Positions 15,273 to 41,226 are shown, counted from the first letter of the stretch. The stretch is 64,000 bases of DNA from Algoriphagus sp. (GCA_036676605.1 JAKFCO010000011.1:39933-103932), one strand, 5' to 3'. Translations and numbers: made by a program. Notes: generated from the sequence alone by a model not told the origin.

Positions 15273-16811
15273 ATGGTCGCAAAAACTTTTGGAAGTGCAG
15301 TATCCGGTGTGGATGCAAATCTAATCACCATCGAAGTCAACGTGGGTCAGGGAACCAGCTTTTTTATGGTGGGTTTGCCGGACAGCGCAGTCAAAGAATC
15401 CCAGCAACGTGTGGAATCTGCCCTGAAATATTTCGGCTACCGAATGCCCCGACAGAAAGTTGTCATCAACCTCGCTCCTGCTGACGTCCGAAAGGAAGGT
15501 TCAGCCTACGATCTCCCCATTGCAATGGGAATTCTCCAGGCTTCCGAACAGGTGGATTTCCCTACACTTGGAGAATATGTAATCATGGGCGAACTCTCGC
15601 TCGACGGGAGTCTTCGCCCGATCAAAGGTGTATTACCCATCGCCATCGAAGCCCGAAAGCGGGGTTTCAAAGGTTTTATCCTTCCGATGGAAAATGCCAA
15701 AGAGGCCTCCATCGTCAATAATCTTGACATCATCGCCGTGGACACGGTGCAAAATGCCATTCTATTTCTTCAGGGAGATTTGGTCATCGAGCCGCTCGTG
15801 ACCGACACCCGGGAGATTTTTTACGATTCCCTGGATCATATCGAATTCGACTTTGCCGATGTGCAAGGCCAGGAAAATATCAAACGTGCGATGGAAATCG
15901 CCGCCGCCGGAGGTCATAATGTGATCATGATCGGGCCTCCGGGAGCAGGCAAAACCATGCTTGCCAAGCGACTCCCCTCTATTCTTCCTCCTCTTTCTCT
16001 GGTGGAAGCATTGGAGACCACCAAGATTCACTCAGTTGCCGGCAAACTCGGAAAAAATGGTTCTCTGATGGCTCACCGCCCTTTTCGAAGTCCGCACCAT
16101 ACGATTTCGGATGTGGCTCTTGTTGGCGGTGGAGGAAATCCCCAACCCGGAGAAATCTCCCTGGCACATAACGGAGTACTTTTTCTGGATGAATTACCTG
16201 AATTCAAGCGGGCCGTCCTCGAAGTGATGCGTCAACCGCTGGAAGAGCGGAAAGTAACGATCTCAAGGGCCAAAGTTTCAGTGGACTATCCAGCCAACTT
16301 TATGCTGATTGCGAGTATGAATCCATGTCCTTGCGGATATTACAATCATCCGGACAAAGAATGTGTCTGCGGCCCGGGCATCGTGCAGCGCTATCTGAAC
16401 AAGGTTTCCGGTCCGCTGCTGGATCGCATCGATCTGCATGTGGAAGTGACTCCGGTGAAATTTGACGAGATGACCTCCACCCGCAAAACCGAATCCAGCA
16501 AATCTATCCGCGAGCGGGTGATCCGCGGAAGGGAGAGACAAGTGGAGCGATTCAAAGACAACCCGGAAGTCTTCTGCAATGCCATGATGCCTTCCCATCT
16601 CGTGAAGGAAGTCTGCCAAATCAATGATGCCGGTAAGGCCCTGCTCAAAACTGCTATGGAACGGCTTGGCCTTTCTGCCCGAGCTTACGATCGAATCCTG
16701 AAAGTTGCCCGCACCATCGCCGATATCTCAGGAAGCGAAACCATCAAAGTTGAGCATCTCGCCGAAGCGATTCAGTACAGGAGTTTGGATAGAGAAGGAT
16801 GGGCGGGGTGA
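15273..16811 (+). CDS. comM: YifB/ComM Mg-chelatase-like AAA+ ATPase
   Basis: INLAPADVRKEGSAYDLPIA, GPPGAGKT, LFLDELPEF, MNPCPCG, SGPLLDRID. Confidence 0.95.
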   Translation: MVAKTFGSAVSGVDANLITIEVNVGQGTSFFMVGLPDSAVKESQQRVESALKYFGYRMPRQKVVINLAPADVRKEGSAYDLPIAMGILQASEQVDFPTLGEYVIMGELSLDGSLRPIKGVLPIAIEARKRGFKGFILPMENAKEASIVNNLDIIAVDTVQNAILFLQGDLVIEPLVTDTREIFYDSLDHIEFDFADVQGQENIKRAMEIAAAGGHNVIMIGPPGAGKTMLAKRLPSILPPLSLVEALETTKIHSVAGKLGKNGSLMAHRPFRSPHHTISDVALVGGGGNPQPGEISLAHNGVLFLDELPEFKRAVLEVMRQPLEERKVTISRAKVSVDYPANFMLIASMNPCPCGYYNHPDKECVCGPGIVQRYLNKVSGPLLDRIDLHVEVTPVKFDEMTSTRKTESSKSIRERVIRGRERQVERFKDNPEVFCNAMMPSHLVKEVCQINDAGKALLKTAMERLGLSARAYDRILKVARTIADISGSETIKVEHLAEAIQYRSLDREGWAG

Positions 16812-16827
16812 GAATGGAGGATTAGAA

Positions 16828-17733
16828 ATGGAGAATGAAGAAATAGAAAATAGGATTCAAACGATCCGTGGTATCCAGGTGATGCTGGATAGTGATTTGG
16901 CTGAACTCTATCAGGTAGAAGTAAAAGTCTTGAACCAGGCTGTAGGAAGAAACCTAAATCGATTTCCTGAAAATTTTAGATTCCAGCTTGAAGAAAATGA
17001 TTTTCAAATCTTAAAATCATCCTCAAAGAACCTAGTCCATTCTTTAAGGTCACAAATTGTGACCTTAAAGAATGGCCGTGGCAAACACAGAAAATATCTT
17101 CCATACGCCTTTACTGAACAGGGCGTAGCCATGCTTTCAGCAGTTTTGAGAAGTGAAATAGCGGTCCAAGTCAGTATCCAAATCATGCAGGCGTTTGTCT
17201 CCATGCGTAAGTTCCTCTTGCAAAATGCCTCGGTTTTCCAGCGTCTTGATCATTTGGAACTGAACCAATTTCAAACCGATGAAAAAATTGAGCGGATTTT
17301 CAAGGCACTTGAAGTCAGTCAACCAGCTTTTGACATGGGGATTTTCTTTGACGGGCAGGTTTTTGATGCCTATACCTTTGTAGCTGACTTGATCAAAAAA
17401 GCACAAAAGGAGATTATTCTGATAGACAATTACGTGGACGAATCGGTTCTAACCTTGCTGACCAAACGTGCCAAAGAAGTGCAAGCGACTATTTATACCA
17501 AAAGCATCAGCAAATCCTTCCAATTGGATCTGGAGAAGCATCATGCCCAATATCCAGAAATACAGGTAAAAACCTTTACACAAAGTCATGATCGCTTTTT
17601 GCTGATTGACGGAAAGGAACTTTACCATATCGGTGCCTCACTAAAAGACTTGGGCAAAAAATGGTTTGCCTTCTCACGAATGGATAGCATGGCGGAGGTT
17701 GTATTGTCGCAATTAAACCAAGAGATTAGATGA
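16828..17733 (+). CDS. ORF6N domain DNA-binding protein with C-terminal PLD-like (HDRF) domain
   Basis: [28 protein letters not shown]-terminal HDRFLLID...HIGASLKDLGKK; start moved to 16828. Confidence 0.85.
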   Translation: MENEEIENRIQTIRGIQVMLDSDLAELYQVEVKVLNQAVGRNLNRFPENFRFQLEENDFQILKSSSKNLVHSLRSQIVTLKNGRGKHRKYLPYAFTEQGVAMLSAVLRSEIAVQVSIQIMQAFVSMRKFLLQNASVFQRLDHLELNQFQTDEKIERIFKALEVSQPAFDMGIFFDGQVFDAYTFVADLIKKAQKEIILIDNYVDESVLTLLTKRAKEVQATIYTKSISKSFQLDLEKHHAQYPEIQVKTFTQSHDRFLLIDGKELYHIGASLKDLGKKWFAFSRMDSMAEVVLSQLNQEIR

Positions 17734-17821
17734 AAGAGTTGGAGAAATTTTTGGTTGAAAACAGCAATTTTATCACCTAACTACACCTCCAATATTTAAA
17801 AAAGATTACCGGAATAATCAG

Positions 17822-17894
17822 GCGATTAAATTCGCCCACTTTGACCAAATCAATTCAATATCGAAACTTGGATCAAGAAGGCTGGGCGGGGTAG
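17822..17894 (+). repeat. Degenerate copy 2 of the comM 3' end
   Basis: Translates (one frameshift) AIKFAHLTKSIQYRNLDQEGWAG* versus comM TIKVEHLAEAIQYRSLDREGWAG*. Confidence 0.85.
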
Positions 17895-39346: not shown

Positions 39347-40252
39347 ATGCAAAATATTTCACGTAGAAAATTTATCCAAACTACCTCATTAGCTACAGCA
39401 GCTCTGCTCACCAGCAATACAGATGGCTTGGCCGGCACGGCTAAAAAAGTTACGGTAGGTGCACACCTATGGGTATATGCAAGCAAGTATCCTCCAAATT
39501 GGGATTGCACTCCTATTATTGAGCAAGTATTCTCTGATTTGAAATATGCCGGCATGGACGGTGTGGAGGTAATGCACACAAACCTGTTTCATGCCGATGC
39601 GGTCACTCGGCTGAGTTCGTTAACTGATAAGTACAAACTTCCGGTTATTGGCACTTCATACAGTGCCGATATGTGGAATAAAGAAAAGCACTCCCAAATC
39701 GAAGACGAGTGTGGTATGCTCACGGAAAAACTTCAAAAACTTAACGCGAAAACCATTGGTCTTACTGTAGGTAATGCCGGACATAGGAAGACAGGAGAGG
39801 AACTGGACTTGCAGGCAGCTATTTTAAGGAAAATACTTGCACAGTCTACAGCGAATGGTATCACACCAAATTTGCACAACCATACCTACGAGGTGACTGA
39901 TGGTATGCACGATTTACAGGGAACGTTAGAAAGAATTCCCGATTTTCCATTGGGACCAGATCTCAATTGGCTAATCCGAGGAGGTGTTGATCCCGTGGAG
40001 TTTATCAAAAAACACAAAAAACAAATTGTGTATCTGCACATACGCGACCAGTTCAATAATGGAGAATGGAGTGAAGCGGTAGGTGAAGGCGAAACAGATT
40101 TTACGTCCATTAGTACAGCTCTTCATGCCATTGAATTTGATGGCATTGCAACAATTGAGCTAGCCTTTCCAAACAATTTTACTCCAACACGTGAGTTACG
40201 TGACAGTTGGAAGCAGAGTCGCAATCATGTTAAAAAAGTGTTTGGATATTAG
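39347..40252 (+). CDS. Sugar phosphate isomerase/epimerase (AP endonuclease 2-like TIM barrel) with Tat signal
   Basis: SRRKF Tat motif; GVE, HNHTYE, PDLNW, HIRD, IEL. Confidence 0.85.
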   Translation: MQNISRRKFIQTTSLATAALLTSNTDGLAGTAKKVTVGAHLWVYASKYPPNWDCTPIIEQVFSDLKYAGMDGVEVMHTNLFHADAVTRLSSLTDKYKLPVIGTSYSADMWNKEKHSQIEDECGMLTEKLQKLNAKTIGLTVGNAGHRKTGEELDLQAAILRKILAQSTANGITPNLHNHTYEVTDGMHDLQGTLERIPDFPLGPDLNWLIRGGVDPVEFIKKHKKQIVYLHIRDQFNNGEWSEAVGEGETDFTSISTALHAIEFDGIATIELAFPNNFTPTRELRDSWKQSRNHVKKVFGY

Positions 40253-40349
40253 CATTAAGATGTCCCTTAAATCACTTCCATTAGCATCTTTCAATAATTG
40301 ATCAAAAAAGGGTACTGGTTTTTTTTACGGTTAGTGGACACTCATCGGG

Positions 40350-40452
40350 GCGGAGACCATCGCTGGTATCTGCGGAAGCGATGTCATCAAAATCAAATCT
40401 GGTCGAGGTGATTCAGTATAGAAGGTTGCACAGAGAAAGATGGACGGGGTGA
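40350..40452 (+). repeat. Degenerate copy 3 of the comM 3' end
   Basis: AETIAGICGSDVIKIK[19 protein letters not shown] versus comM ARTIADISGSETIKVEHLAEAIQYRSLDREGWAG*. Confidence 0.88.
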
Positions 40453-40468
40453 GAATGGAGAATTTAAA

Positions 40469-41226
40469 ATGAAGAATGAGGAAATAGAAAATAGAATTCA
40501 CACGATCCGTGGTATCCAAGTAATGCTGGATAGTGATTTGGCTGAACTTTATCAAGTGGAAACTAGAACAATTAACCAAGCTGTAAAAAGAAATTTAGAT
40601 CGGTTTCCTGGGGATTTTAGATTCCAGTTGACTTTAGAGGAGGTGAAAAATCTAAGATCGCAAAATGCGCCCTTAAATGGCAATCTCTCTTCAAGATCAC
40701 AAAATGTGATCTTGAAGAGAGAAAAACACATTCGCGAAAAAAACATCAAGTACTTGCCTTATGCCTTCACCGAACAGGGAGTAACCATGCTTTCAGCAGT
40801 TTTGCGAAGTGATGTAGCTGTTCAAGTCATCTCCAAATCATGAAAGCCTTTGTCTCCATGCGAAAGTTTCTTTTGCAAAACGCCTCAGTTTTTCAGCGTT
40901 TGGATAGTTTGGAACTAAAGCAACTGCAAACCGATGGGAAAATTGAACGGATTTTCAAGGCATTGGAAGCCGGTCAACCAGCTCCAGACAAGGGGATATT
41001 CTTTGATGGGCAGATTTTTGATGCCTATGTTTTTGTAGCCGATCTGATCAAGAAAGCACAAAATGAGATTATTCTGATAGACAATTACGTGGACAAATCG
41101 ATCCTAACCTTGCTGACCAAACGAGCCAAAGAAGTCCAAGCGACTATTTATACCAAAAGCATCACATGCAACGATGCATGGTTTTATTCCATTAATGCAT
41201 GTTTGGAGTGGGTCAATCCAACATGA
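40469..41226 (+). pseudogene. Second ORF6N gene, frameshifted and 3' truncated
   Basis: Close paralog of 16828-17733; 1-nt deletion near 40830; homology ends after YTKSI (about 41163). Confidence 0.88.

Follow-up and report, generated by a model that had tools for sequence, protein, structure and literature searches.

The intact comM gene of this freshwater Algoriphagus genome is followed by a horizontally acquired island that holds a gas-vesicle regulon but no recombinase, and in which three nested ends of comM itself lie in the same orientation. On balance we consider serial displacement of the gene's C-terminal end to be the best reading, in which comM-anchored DNA joined illegitimately inside the resident tail, and the region behind comM has probably acted as a landing site that was filled stepwise without a recombinase. 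The preliminary description of this DNA had proposed an integrase-free island behind an intact comM, bracketed by two repeats. The island and the repeats hold, while the simple two-repeat structure does not, as there are three nested tails and the gvp genes abut cut genes and not a repeat.

Ends of comM and copies of ORF6N

The features are collected in Table 1, with positions counted in the window, i.e. the whole stretch of 64,000 nt that was analysed. The comM protein is whole, as stated earlier, and shares 97% amino-acid identity with that of the nearest species (G009). Its stop codon (16809-16811) is separated from ORF6N copy A by a 16-nt spacer. The last 32 comM codons and ORF6N (16713-17509) are repeated directly at 40356-41164. 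The two stretches align over 817 columns and have 79% identity by BLAST (E = 2e-198), which confirms the direct repeat reported before. In windows of 60 nt the identity lies between 57% and 93%; the 800-nt repeat contains exact runs of 26-30 nt, and its mid-part is only 49-67% identical. The second copy has decayed, also as reported: in tail C 2 nt are deleted and about 13 of the 33 residues differ, and ORF6N copy C has lost 1 nt between 40829 and 40830 and ends after codon 229, right behind a 28-nt exact match.

Table 1. Features of the comM locus and of the island behind it
Feature	Position	Strand	Remarks
comM, conserved anchor gene	15273..16811	+	intact, 512 aa; Pfam ChlI, Mg_chelatase, Mg_chelatase_C
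Tail A, working last 32 comM codons and stop	16713..16811	+	left end of the long repeat
ORF6N copy A	16828..17733	+	intact, 301 aa; PF10543, E = 1e-30
Tail B, orphan comM tail	17825..17894	+	at least 22 codons, ends in TAG
RhuM-family gene start	17921..18088	+	55 N-terminal codons, cut off
Sensor-kinase fragment	18150..18476	+	like the N-terminus of the gene at 36004 (repeat); no Pfam match
Gas-vesicle regulon	18497..37641	+	Pfam; REC-PAS kinase, sigma54 activator, gvpA-like ORF (22144-22350; 29% tblastn match only), gvpA (26301-26600), gvpN, Hsp20, split ArsA, Cdc48-type AAA ATPase, 23S-IVP protein, five gvpF/L genes, gvpG, gvpA/J-like gene, gvpK, hybrid kinase
Decaying remnants	37642..39331	+	receiver-domain fragment, 227-aa ORF, PAS fragments; repeats
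Xylose-isomerase-like TIM-barrel gene	39332..40252	+	last gene before tail C
Tail C, orphan comM tail	40356..40452	+	32 codons
ORF6N copy C, pseudogene	40469..41164	+	frameshift, truncation
Second rearrangement joint (41165-41405), then 742-aa gene	41165..43634	-	no Pfam family

All comM tails in the 4.64-Mb genome are found at this locus, three in number and co-oriented. Tails A, B and C and G009 share about 20 nt behind the stop codon, and in tail B this spacer continues to 17920. Tail B, the third tail, was absent from the preliminary description. Behind it lies the RhuM-like fragment, a relic of the former neighbour gene of tail B. The fragment shares 36-49% identity with the N-terminal ends of five paralogues, among which C27 has matches to PF13310 and Fic.

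ORF6N copy A consists of the ORF6N DNA-binding domain, a long helix and a PLD-like C-terminal domain, in which the motif H254-x-R256-x4-D261 is invariant in an alignment of 62 homologues. Its AF2 model has a mean pLDDT of 78 and matches NucT, PLD3/4, Zucchini and TrmBL2 in Foldseek. The gene contains a palindrome with a 19-bp stem at 17037-17075.

Substitutions between copies A and C are largely synonymous (pS 0.45, pN 0.15; dS 0.70, dN/dS 0.23), in agreement with the many synonymous differences noted earlier. Copy A clusters with the comM-linked ORF6N of L154 and L155, L154 belonging to the clade that is closest to the comM of this genome, and copy C clusters with that of Algoriphagus sp. A40, its nearest relative. 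As the copies fall in different clades, each with a closer relative in another genome, they are not local duplicates; they are alleles from different Algoriphagus lineages, and the two origins suggested for them earlier are thus borne out. In the last 130 nt A and C are 89-92% identical while A and its nearest orthologue reach 83%, hence gene conversion between the copies is indicated.

Inside comM a max-chi2 breakpoint was detected near 16190-16370 (p <= 0.001), about 450-600 nt before the stop. The first 1000 nt of the gene place this genome as sister to G009 and L154 with 100% bootstrap, the 536 nt at the 3' end give a tree without resolution for its placement, and the two trees disagree. 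It should be noted that the breakpoint could belong to the G009/L154 lineage instead of this genome. ORF6N copy A is congruent with the 5' tree of comM and could be vertical rather than imported, in which case the tail-bearing block must have been assembled in a donor. The earlier proposal that incoming DNA supplied the present tail can be upheld in part: an old tail was displaced, and either copy may be the incoming one, A grouping with L154 and C with A40.

The gas-vesicle regulon and its surroundings

Genes for GvpA, GvpN, GvpF/L, GvpG, a GvpJ-like protein and GvpK lie together and identify a gas-vesicle gene cluster, with Pfam matches to PF00741, PF06386 (five genes), PF05120 and PF05121 and to an AAA_5 GvpN-type ATPase. 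The imported DNA is cut at its left edge, as marked by the kinase fragment in front of the cluster; a related full kinase gene lies upstream of the REC-PAS kinase in L116 and L118. No gas-vesicle genes were found in 40 relatives searched, and the regulon recurs, with 70-91% nucleotide identity, in freshwater Bacteroidia, where at least 80 MAG species carry it. Sequence comparison thus marks the gvp genes as foreign, and their source would be Bacteroidales-type freshwater bacteria, with about 20 kb having crossed between orders of Bacteroidota. In 80 Bacteroidia MAG loci neither comM, ORF6N nor RhuM was found within 10 kb of gvp. A gvp block elsewhere in relatives, unlinked to comM tails, had been named as counter-evidence to the island; as worded this is inapplicable, since close relatives are free of gvp and the distant genomes that carry it have no adjoining comM.

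Towards the distal end, a strain variant (L067) has 865 nt at 39041-39047 that are missing from the window, and its homology ends at the stop codon of tail C. The nearest homologues of the TIM-barrel gene are 69-70% identical and none is named Algoriphagus. The left edge of tail C is a joint with foreign DNA, and the 742-aa gene behind the second joint is absent from relatives, save for a fragment in G021.

The empty site that had been predicted, comM-ORF6N directly followed by the gene at 41.4 kb, was seen in no relative, and no conspecific contig or strain lacking the island turned up among the matching contigs. L154 and A40 have a single comM tail with ORF6N, followed by an MBL-fold gene and then, at differing distances, a PPK2 gene. 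In A40 AXE1 and PFK also lie behind comM-ORF6N; in this genome they are on another contig. The DNA of the window from 44.1 kb onward sits elsewhere in relatives. As the genes downstream of comM lie elsewhere among genomes, the locus is also a synteny breakpoint.

Proposed gene-end displacement and its alternatives

Pfam searches of about 30 island ORFs detected no recombinase between the repeats, as stated earlier, and no integrase remnant either. Of the five tyrosine-recombinase matches (PF00589) in the genome, none lies on the 121-kb contig C11; such a recombinase is also absent from the comM contigs of 14 genus genomes and, in 29 family genomes, from the 1.5 kb around the gene. No integrase was seen in the cargo at 13 tail-bearing comM loci either; for the other genomes, the exclusion of serine recombinases and transposases covers only the larger cargo ORFs, searched with Pfam.

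The same scar exists elsewhere. Of 390 species in the family, about 12 (about 3%) have old comM tails with integrase-free cargo. The tail lengths are 22-161 codons, with 22-43 codons in 10 of the 13 cases, and four start at -30 to -34 codons. The cargo is varied and free of recombinases (a TPR protein, DUF3857 proteins, toxin-antitoxin pairs, a methylase with restriction enzyme, kinases). In G211 the old tail begins 8 nt past the end of a cargo gene, and G085 and G352 have orthologous old tails with different cargo in front. Within the present genome at least 14 other genes have an orphan tail behind lower-GC cargo, and genome-wide the old tails cluster at about 87-131 nt.

The locus has an intact anchor and co-oriented orphan 3' ends, each with the start of a different former neighbour gene, and the dS of 0.70 and the separate clades mark orphan and working ends as alleles of different lineages. 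The distal comM tail with ORF6N is a displaced, decaying copy, much as the preliminary description had it. In the displacement that we favour, related Cyclobacteriaceae DNA consisting of the 3' part of comM and its downstream region would pair by homology with the resident comM, and its far, non-homologous end would join illegitimately within the last tens of resident comM codons; the candidate joints at this locus are the stretches 17734-17824 and 40253-40355. The incoming end would become the new working tail, and the resident tail with its following gene would be pushed downstream and decay. Recombination of the RecA type and end joining or repair would be carried out by the host's enzymes, with none supplied by the element.

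Because three tails are nested, at least two such events are needed. Tail C with ORF6N copy C, tail B with the RhuM relic and tail A with ORF6N copy A would be the oldest, the middle and the present layer, respectively, and we would place the gas-vesicle regulon in the middle one. Where the gvp DNA is joined, a RhuM-like gene and a kinase gene are cut, which indicates illegitimate joining and not use of the repeats. As neither an empty site nor an island-free conspecific was found, the order and number of events are a reconstruction. Against displacement stands the clustering of tail lengths, at comM as well as genome-wide, which random illegitimate joints do not predict.

With lower probability, the displaced tails may have been left by a general cassette pathway working without a recombinase, and would then not be accidental scars. 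It also seems rather unlikely, though conceivable, that the cargo takes the gene end along as a portable homology arm, the tails bracketing a swap slot for host recombination. Both ideas are hinted at by the differing cargo before the orthologous tails of G085 and G352, and by old tails of about 65-130 nt at comM across genera and likewise at 14 or more other genes of this genome. If this were true, there would be a defined, undescribed joining step rather than random illegitimate recombination.

We are similarly doubtful of a Campbell-type integration, in which a circle with comM-tail-ORF6N and cargo recombined once with the resident unit and thereby duplicated it around the cargo. The 800-nt repeat with its exact stretches, the gene conversion indicated between A and C, and the differing cargo in G085 and G352 agree with such a crossover; the diverged middle of the unit and its overall dS, however, make it a poor substrate. 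Further, the truncated copy is the distal one and is followed by unrelated DNA, the third tail and the cut genes at the gvp edges require extra illegitimate events anyway, and the origin of the first tail-bearing circle is left unexplained. That the repeats pass on or delete the cassette in the same manner we regard as no more probable.

Less likely still is a decayed CIME-like array, where an integrase, since lost or acting from elsewhere, inserted elements serially at the comM 3' end, each with a replacement tail. Such an array is classically recognised by co-oriented repeats of the 3' end of a conserved gene, three successive tails look like tandem accretion, and the shared post-stop nucleotides and the old tails starting within a few codons of each other would suit it. 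On the other hand, no integrase was found in the island, on the contig, near comM in the genus and family genomes or in the cargo of tail-bearing loci. The gap of 8 nt in G211 leaves no room for an arm-type site, and the repeat is long and diverged, not a short attachment repeat with an identical core at a fixed comM position. As the old tails of the 13 cases measure anything between 22 and 161 codons, there is no fixed attachment site, and with no integrase near comM in 43 relatives the site-specific integration at a comM hotspot that had been considered earlier is unlikely.

Finally, a local tandem duplication that diverged later, or an assembly artefact, is hardly credible even with copies of one gene family on the same strand, since A and C belong to different clades with closer relatives in other genomes, and independent metagenome contigs from several other runs (Logan; 100% matches to 14617-21823 and 36121-46615) reproduce both junctions, so that the earlier concern about an artefact does not apply.

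Known systems with displaced gene ends

CIMEs, which belong to the integrase-less remnants of ICEs and IMEs at the 3' ends of protein genes (e.g. ICESt1/CIME at fda of Streptococcus thermophilus), have short attachment sites with a fixed core, lie beside related integrase-bearing elements and occur in tandem arrays with three repeats. The comM locus resembles them in having integrase-free DNA between direct repeats of a gene 3' end, three in tandem, but neither fixed-core short sites nor related integrase-bearing elements were found.

[quoted passage not shown] 2009; Kirchberger et al. 2017, PMC5361080). On our reading, a conserved 5' anchor here as there receives a new 3' end without an integrase, and old 3' ends with their neighbours are shifted downstream in the same orientation, piling into arrays. 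The present anchor is however the housekeeping gene comM and not a polymorphic toxin, the cargo is a 20-kb gas-vesicle regulon with DNA-binding genes and not a toxin-immunity pair, and there is no sign of selection retaining the displaced gene.

Restriction-modification genes have been found inserted with long target duplications, the repeats being 46-423 bp (Nobusato et al. 2000; Furuta et al. 2010, PMC2853133); most cases are from transformable bacteria and the repeats often overlap a gene 3' end (PMC2853133). Similarly, our insert is free of mobility genes and lies between long, variable direct repeats of more than 30 bp, with the target single-copy in L154 and A40. Unlike the published copies, which are nearly identical and match a single target, ours are 79% identical alleles of different lineages, hence one copy arrived with the insert. 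In AbaR islands of Acinetobacter baumannii, Tn7-like transposons interrupt and inactivate comM (PMC11441513, PMC11014353). The gene is an insertion landmark in both cases, but here it is whole and transposition genes are absent.

This kind of scar is thus already known; what is new is that it is common in this genome and family. The locus illustrates how a complex trait of 20 kb, gas vesicles that bring their own sigma54 control, has settled in a chromosome without integrase or transposase. With the scar at comM in about 3% of the family's species and at about 15 genes in this genome, gene-end displacement may be a routine way of gaining accessory genes that is overlooked by island-finding tools keyed to integrases. 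Nested tails record insertion order, and orphan tails are easy to search, so that rate and length rule can be measured in genome collections. One other tail-flanked insert in this genome (C110) carries a type I restriction-modification system.

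Three comM tails and the DNA between them

The comM gene lies on a 121-kb contig (C11, of which the window covers 39933-103932) of the 4.64-Mb genome, which is in 140 contigs, and its product is 97% identical to that of G009, the nearest species representative. As proposed in the preliminary description, comM has stayed intact in spite of the island behind it, with all three domains present. The direct repeat claimed there was also found, as 16713-17509 aligns with 40356-41164 over 817 columns; the identity is 79% by BLAST and 57-93% per 60-nt window, and the alignment ends sharply right after a 28-nt exact match. 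The repeats are no assembly artefact: Logan assemblies of other runs matched 14617-21823 and 36121-46615 at 100%. Decay of the distal copy was confirmed by a 2-nt deletion in its comM end (tail C) and by the alteration of about 13 of 33 residues.

Besides the working tail A and the orphan tail C we detected a second orphan, tail B, in which the last dozen comM codons are kept (IQYRNLDQEGWAG, then stop), followed by a post-stop spacer of about 20 nt and the 55 N-terminal codons of a RhuM-family gene, one paralogue of which scores for PF13310 and Fic. These three were the only comM tails in the whole genome, and in 14 relatives of the genus no tail repeats were found in the 18 kb that follow comM. 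Tails A, B and C and G009 have in common a stretch of about 20 nt past the stop codon (GAATGGAGGATTAGAAATG and variants, showing a 7-nt rhythm), whichever gene lies downstream.

Coordinates of the features at the comM locus (window positions unless a locus is named)
Feature	Position	Remarks
comM	15273-16811	intact, 512 aa; Pfam ChlI, Mg_chelatase, Mg_chelatase_C
Tail A	16713-16811	working
Tail B	17825-17894	orphan
Tail C	40356-40452	orphan
Post-stop spacers	16812-16850, 17895-17930, 40453-40490; G009 = L037:1574-1595	variable gene begins exactly at ATG
ORF6N copy A	16828-17733	intact, directly behind comM; PF10543
ORF6N copy C	40469-41164	cut-off pseudogene
ORF6N C-terminal domain	17338-17733	residues ~170-301
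ORF6N palindrome	17037-17075 (A), 40684-40722 (C)	also in L154, L155, L190, L040; six genes
Kinase fragment	18150-18476	left edge of gvp regulon
gvpA-like ORF	22144-22350	basis is one 29% tblastn match only
ArsA-type ATPase gene	27153-28106	two ORFs, profile positions 2-168 and 191-303
TIM-barrel gene	39332-40252	xylose-isomerase-like; adjoins tail C
L067 differing DNA	L067:11123-12881	compared with window 40450 onward
kdp operon and sigma54 activator	~49600-60430	inserted relative to G009

By Pfam, the gene order of the island runs from the kinase fragment through a REC-PAS histidine kinase and a sigma54 activator to gvpA, gvpN, Hsp20 and a split ArsA, then a Cdc48-type AAA ATPase and a 23S-IVP four-helix protein, five gvpF/L genes, gvpG, a gvpA/J-like gene and gvpK, and finally a hybrid kinase with decaying sensor fragments and the TIM-barrel gene, whose best homologues are just 69-70% identical. 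The ArsA-type ATPase gene may be broken. The island is integrase-free as first described, with no recombinase among its ORFs, and the five genome-wide matches to Phage_integrase (PF00589) all lie off the 121-kb contig. G+C is mostly 36-42% in the island versus 44-49% in the flanks. At the left edge of the gas-vesicle (gvp) regulon a cut kinase gene abuts the cut RhuM gene with no repeat there, and no C-terminal RhuM remnant was found beyond the far side of the gvp DNA.

A variant strain in run SRR22388070 (loci L153 and L067), 99.3-99.7% identical, shares the left side, the TIM-barrel gene and tail C; the stop codon of tail C is the exact point where L067 departs from the window. Its DNA to the right, which is missing from this genome, holds the remnant of a transposase and a disrupted gene for a short-chain dehydrogenase. 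As L067 (99.7%) carries entirely different DNA there, the right border of tail C is polymorphic among very close strains. L067:8844-9709 also retains 865 nt of a PAS-kinase pseudogene, lost in the window at 39041-39047.

Ancestry of comM, the ORF6N copies and the cargo

The first 1000 nt of comM place this genome as sister to G009 and the metagenomic locus L154 (100% bootstrap), and the last 536 nt leave the relation unresolved; the maximum chi-square test puts a breakpoint near 16190-16370 (p <= 0.001). This would fit an import with a crossover inside comM, or the recombinant may instead be the other lineage.

In ORF6N copy C, 1 nt is deleted between 40829 and 40830, and the gene is truncated after codon 229. 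Between the copies dS is 0.70 and dN 0.16, and as the dN/dS of 0.23 compares with 0.05-0.13 for functional orthologue pairs, most of the divergence dates from a time when each copy was functional in a lineage of its own. In the tree, copy A clusters with the comM-linked ORF6N genes of L154 and L155 and copy C with that of Algoriphagus sp. A40. The unit is a mosaic: at 16909-17076 the copies are only 49-67% identical, with A like L154 and C like A40, whereas over the last 130 nt ahead of the cut they are 89-92% identical, above A versus L154 (83%). The similarity in these 130 nt suggests gene conversion between the copies. Copy A is concordant with the vertical history of the 5' part of comM, while by the logic of displacement the proximal layer is the newest; both would be compatible if a close relative, e.g. 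the L154/L155 lineage, was the source of the last import.

The cargo has another source. One GvpF/L protein of the island had no match in 24 species of the genus, nor in 16 other families of the order. GvpN was found at 80 loci in species-representative genomes, nearly all of them freshwater Bacteroidia, Bacteroidales, Prolixibacteraceae or Lentimicrobiaceae MAGs, at mostly 90-98% identity (80-98% across the 80 loci), with 70-91% DNA identity over window positions 18.5-36 kb. To a distance of 10 kb, all 80 loci are without comM, ORF6N, RhuM and the TIM-barrel gene, and a gvp donor with an adjoining comM was rejected (0/80). Absent from the relatives and present in distant MAGs with no comM nearby, the regulon is hence foreign to Algoriphagus, and the comM tails are those of the recipient clade, not of the gvp donors.

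The preliminary description predicted that relatives lacking the island would have comM-ORF6N directly followed by the gene at 41.4 kb, an order seen at none of 14 genus loci. The ABC-transporter gene upstream is kept beside comM in 11 of the 15 genus relatives examined, and synteny ends either behind ORF6N or already at the stop codon of comM. Downstream of comM the relatives carry orthologues of contigs C21 and C28 of this genome. The order in Algoriphagus sp. A40 is ABC-comM-ORF6N-MBL...AXE1-PFK-PPK2-aldehyde dehydrogenase, and in L154 it is comM-ORF6N-MBL-PPK2, with homology to the window stopping 4 nt past the stop of copy A. In this genome C21 carries AXE1 and PFK, C28 carries the aldehyde dehydrogenase gene, and genes for MBL and PPK2 are missing. 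From 44129 onward the window consists of a core block that relatives have at another place. As these neighbours and this block lie elsewhere, the locus is also a synteny breakpoint, and no available genome has the predicted empty site. No island-less conspecific contig was found: exact-protein look-ups of comM, ORF6N copy A, the REC-PAS kinase and the TIM-barrel protein returned island-bearing contigs only, and that of the 742-aa gene right of the island gave no match. Further to the right, a kdp operon (kdpA, kdpB, kdpC, porin, kdpD, kinase) with its own sigma54 activator, and with no recombinase, is inserted relative to G009, where the flanks of the insertion site are adjacent.

Recurrence of the scar and its explanation

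Searching 400 genomes of the family with the last 59 comM residues, we detected a second or third comM tail in 11, and a DNA search added G243. The old tails cluster at roughly 65-130 nt. In G211, which has three tails in total, the oldest adjoins the ancestral MBL gene.

Old comM tails in other genomes of the family
Genome	Old tail (codons)	Cargo or position
G211	30 and 43	TPR/TonB_C gene, two DUF3857 genes
G202	33	100 nt past stop
G085, G352	41, 34	orthologous old tails, differing cargo in front
G168	38	HigBA-like toxin-antitoxin pair
G243	27	tail on other contig than comM
G463	22	6.4 kb: kinase, LytTR regulator, secreted protein
G420	68	215-aa ORF with no Pfam match
G421	116	FG-GAP protein
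G143	161	cytosine methylase, restriction enzyme

No recombinase was found in the cargo of those loci that were read out. In one genome of another family of the order (G036:C44:269992-277704) comM is in two pieces, residues 1-284 and 275-512, with about 6 kb of inserted DNA between them.

We also looked for the scar outside comM in this genome, comparing the final 600 nt of 2376 long ORFs with the same-strand downstream DNA. At least 14 further genes are followed downstream by a candidate orphan tail that is a diverged copy of their own (76-97% identity); these loci are outside the window, on contigs C103, C110, C123, C138, C17, C25, C40, C45, C62, C90, C92, C96 and C99. The candidate tails are mostly 87-131 nt long at a distance of 0.07-18.4 kb, and the cargo before them, 0.16-18.6 kb in length, is mostly of lower G+C and free of integrase-like ORFs. 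On C110 the insert is a type I restriction-modification block of 18.6 kb, with an ORF6N-like gene and a RhuM gene in it.

Gene-end displacement is the best explanation of the tails behind comM. Homologous pairing within the conserved gene would be followed by an illegitimate join inside the resident tail, whereby the incoming tail would take over and the old one be pushed downstream. This would have run at least twice at the locus, and the gas-vesicle DNA would have joined by another illegitimate event, in this lineage or in a donor Algoriphagus. The same mechanism was put forward to account for the orphan 3' ends of Rhs loci and for T6SS effector-immunity arrays (PMC5361080). There is a likeness to the 'insertion with long target duplication' of restriction-modification systems (PMC2853133), where the repeats are near-identical; here they are diverged (79%). 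The insertion scar is of an already known kind, and what sets it apart is the cargo, by its size as well as its nature, together with the three nested layers and the evidence for a common process in this genome and family. Of the preliminary interpretation, the integrase-free island, the displaced old tail and the intact comM stand, while three tails and the cut genes do not agree with a simple two-repeat element.

Its second option, single-crossover entry of a circle carrying a tail, is possible for some steps and gets some support from the gene conversion signal between the ORF6N copies, but it leaves the cut genes and the third tail unexplained. A fixed attachment site was rejected, since it is disfavoured by the scatter of the tail lengths and by a gap of only 8 nt from cargo gene stop to old tail in G211. 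Nor does anything point to a dedicated recombinase at comM as a hotspot: no integrase-like ORF occurs closer than 1.5 kb to comM in 29 genomes of the family, or on the contigs that carry comM in 14 genomes of the genus. Among the serious options, a decayed site-specific array has the least support.

The ORF6N protein and a palindrome in its gene

For the C-terminal domain of ORF6N a phospholipase-D/nuclease fold was predicted by Foldseek, with matches to NucT, Zucchini, PLD3/4 and TrmBL2 (E down to 2e-6), and Pfam gave a weak PLDc_2 match only (E = 0.04). The motif H254-x-R256-x4-D261...G269-x-S271 is invariant across 62 homologues. A DNA-binding nuclease and a TrmB-like regulator are both possible roles for the protein. 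A homing-type nuclease behind the hotspot is not needed, as nine tail-bearing comM loci of other genera (G211, G202, G243, G085, G352, G168, G463, G420, G421) are without ORF6N.

The coding sequence of ORF6N contains a perfect palindrome with a stem of 17-26 bp, located at the motif LRSQ(I/N)VTLK and missing from two more distant ORF6N genes (G013, G014). Twelve stem pairs are changed on both sides, and the observed covariation was reached in 0 of 500 shuffles. An operator and a recombination or cleavage site are both possibilities for this element; in L155 similar palindromes also occur in the comM-ORF6N spacer.
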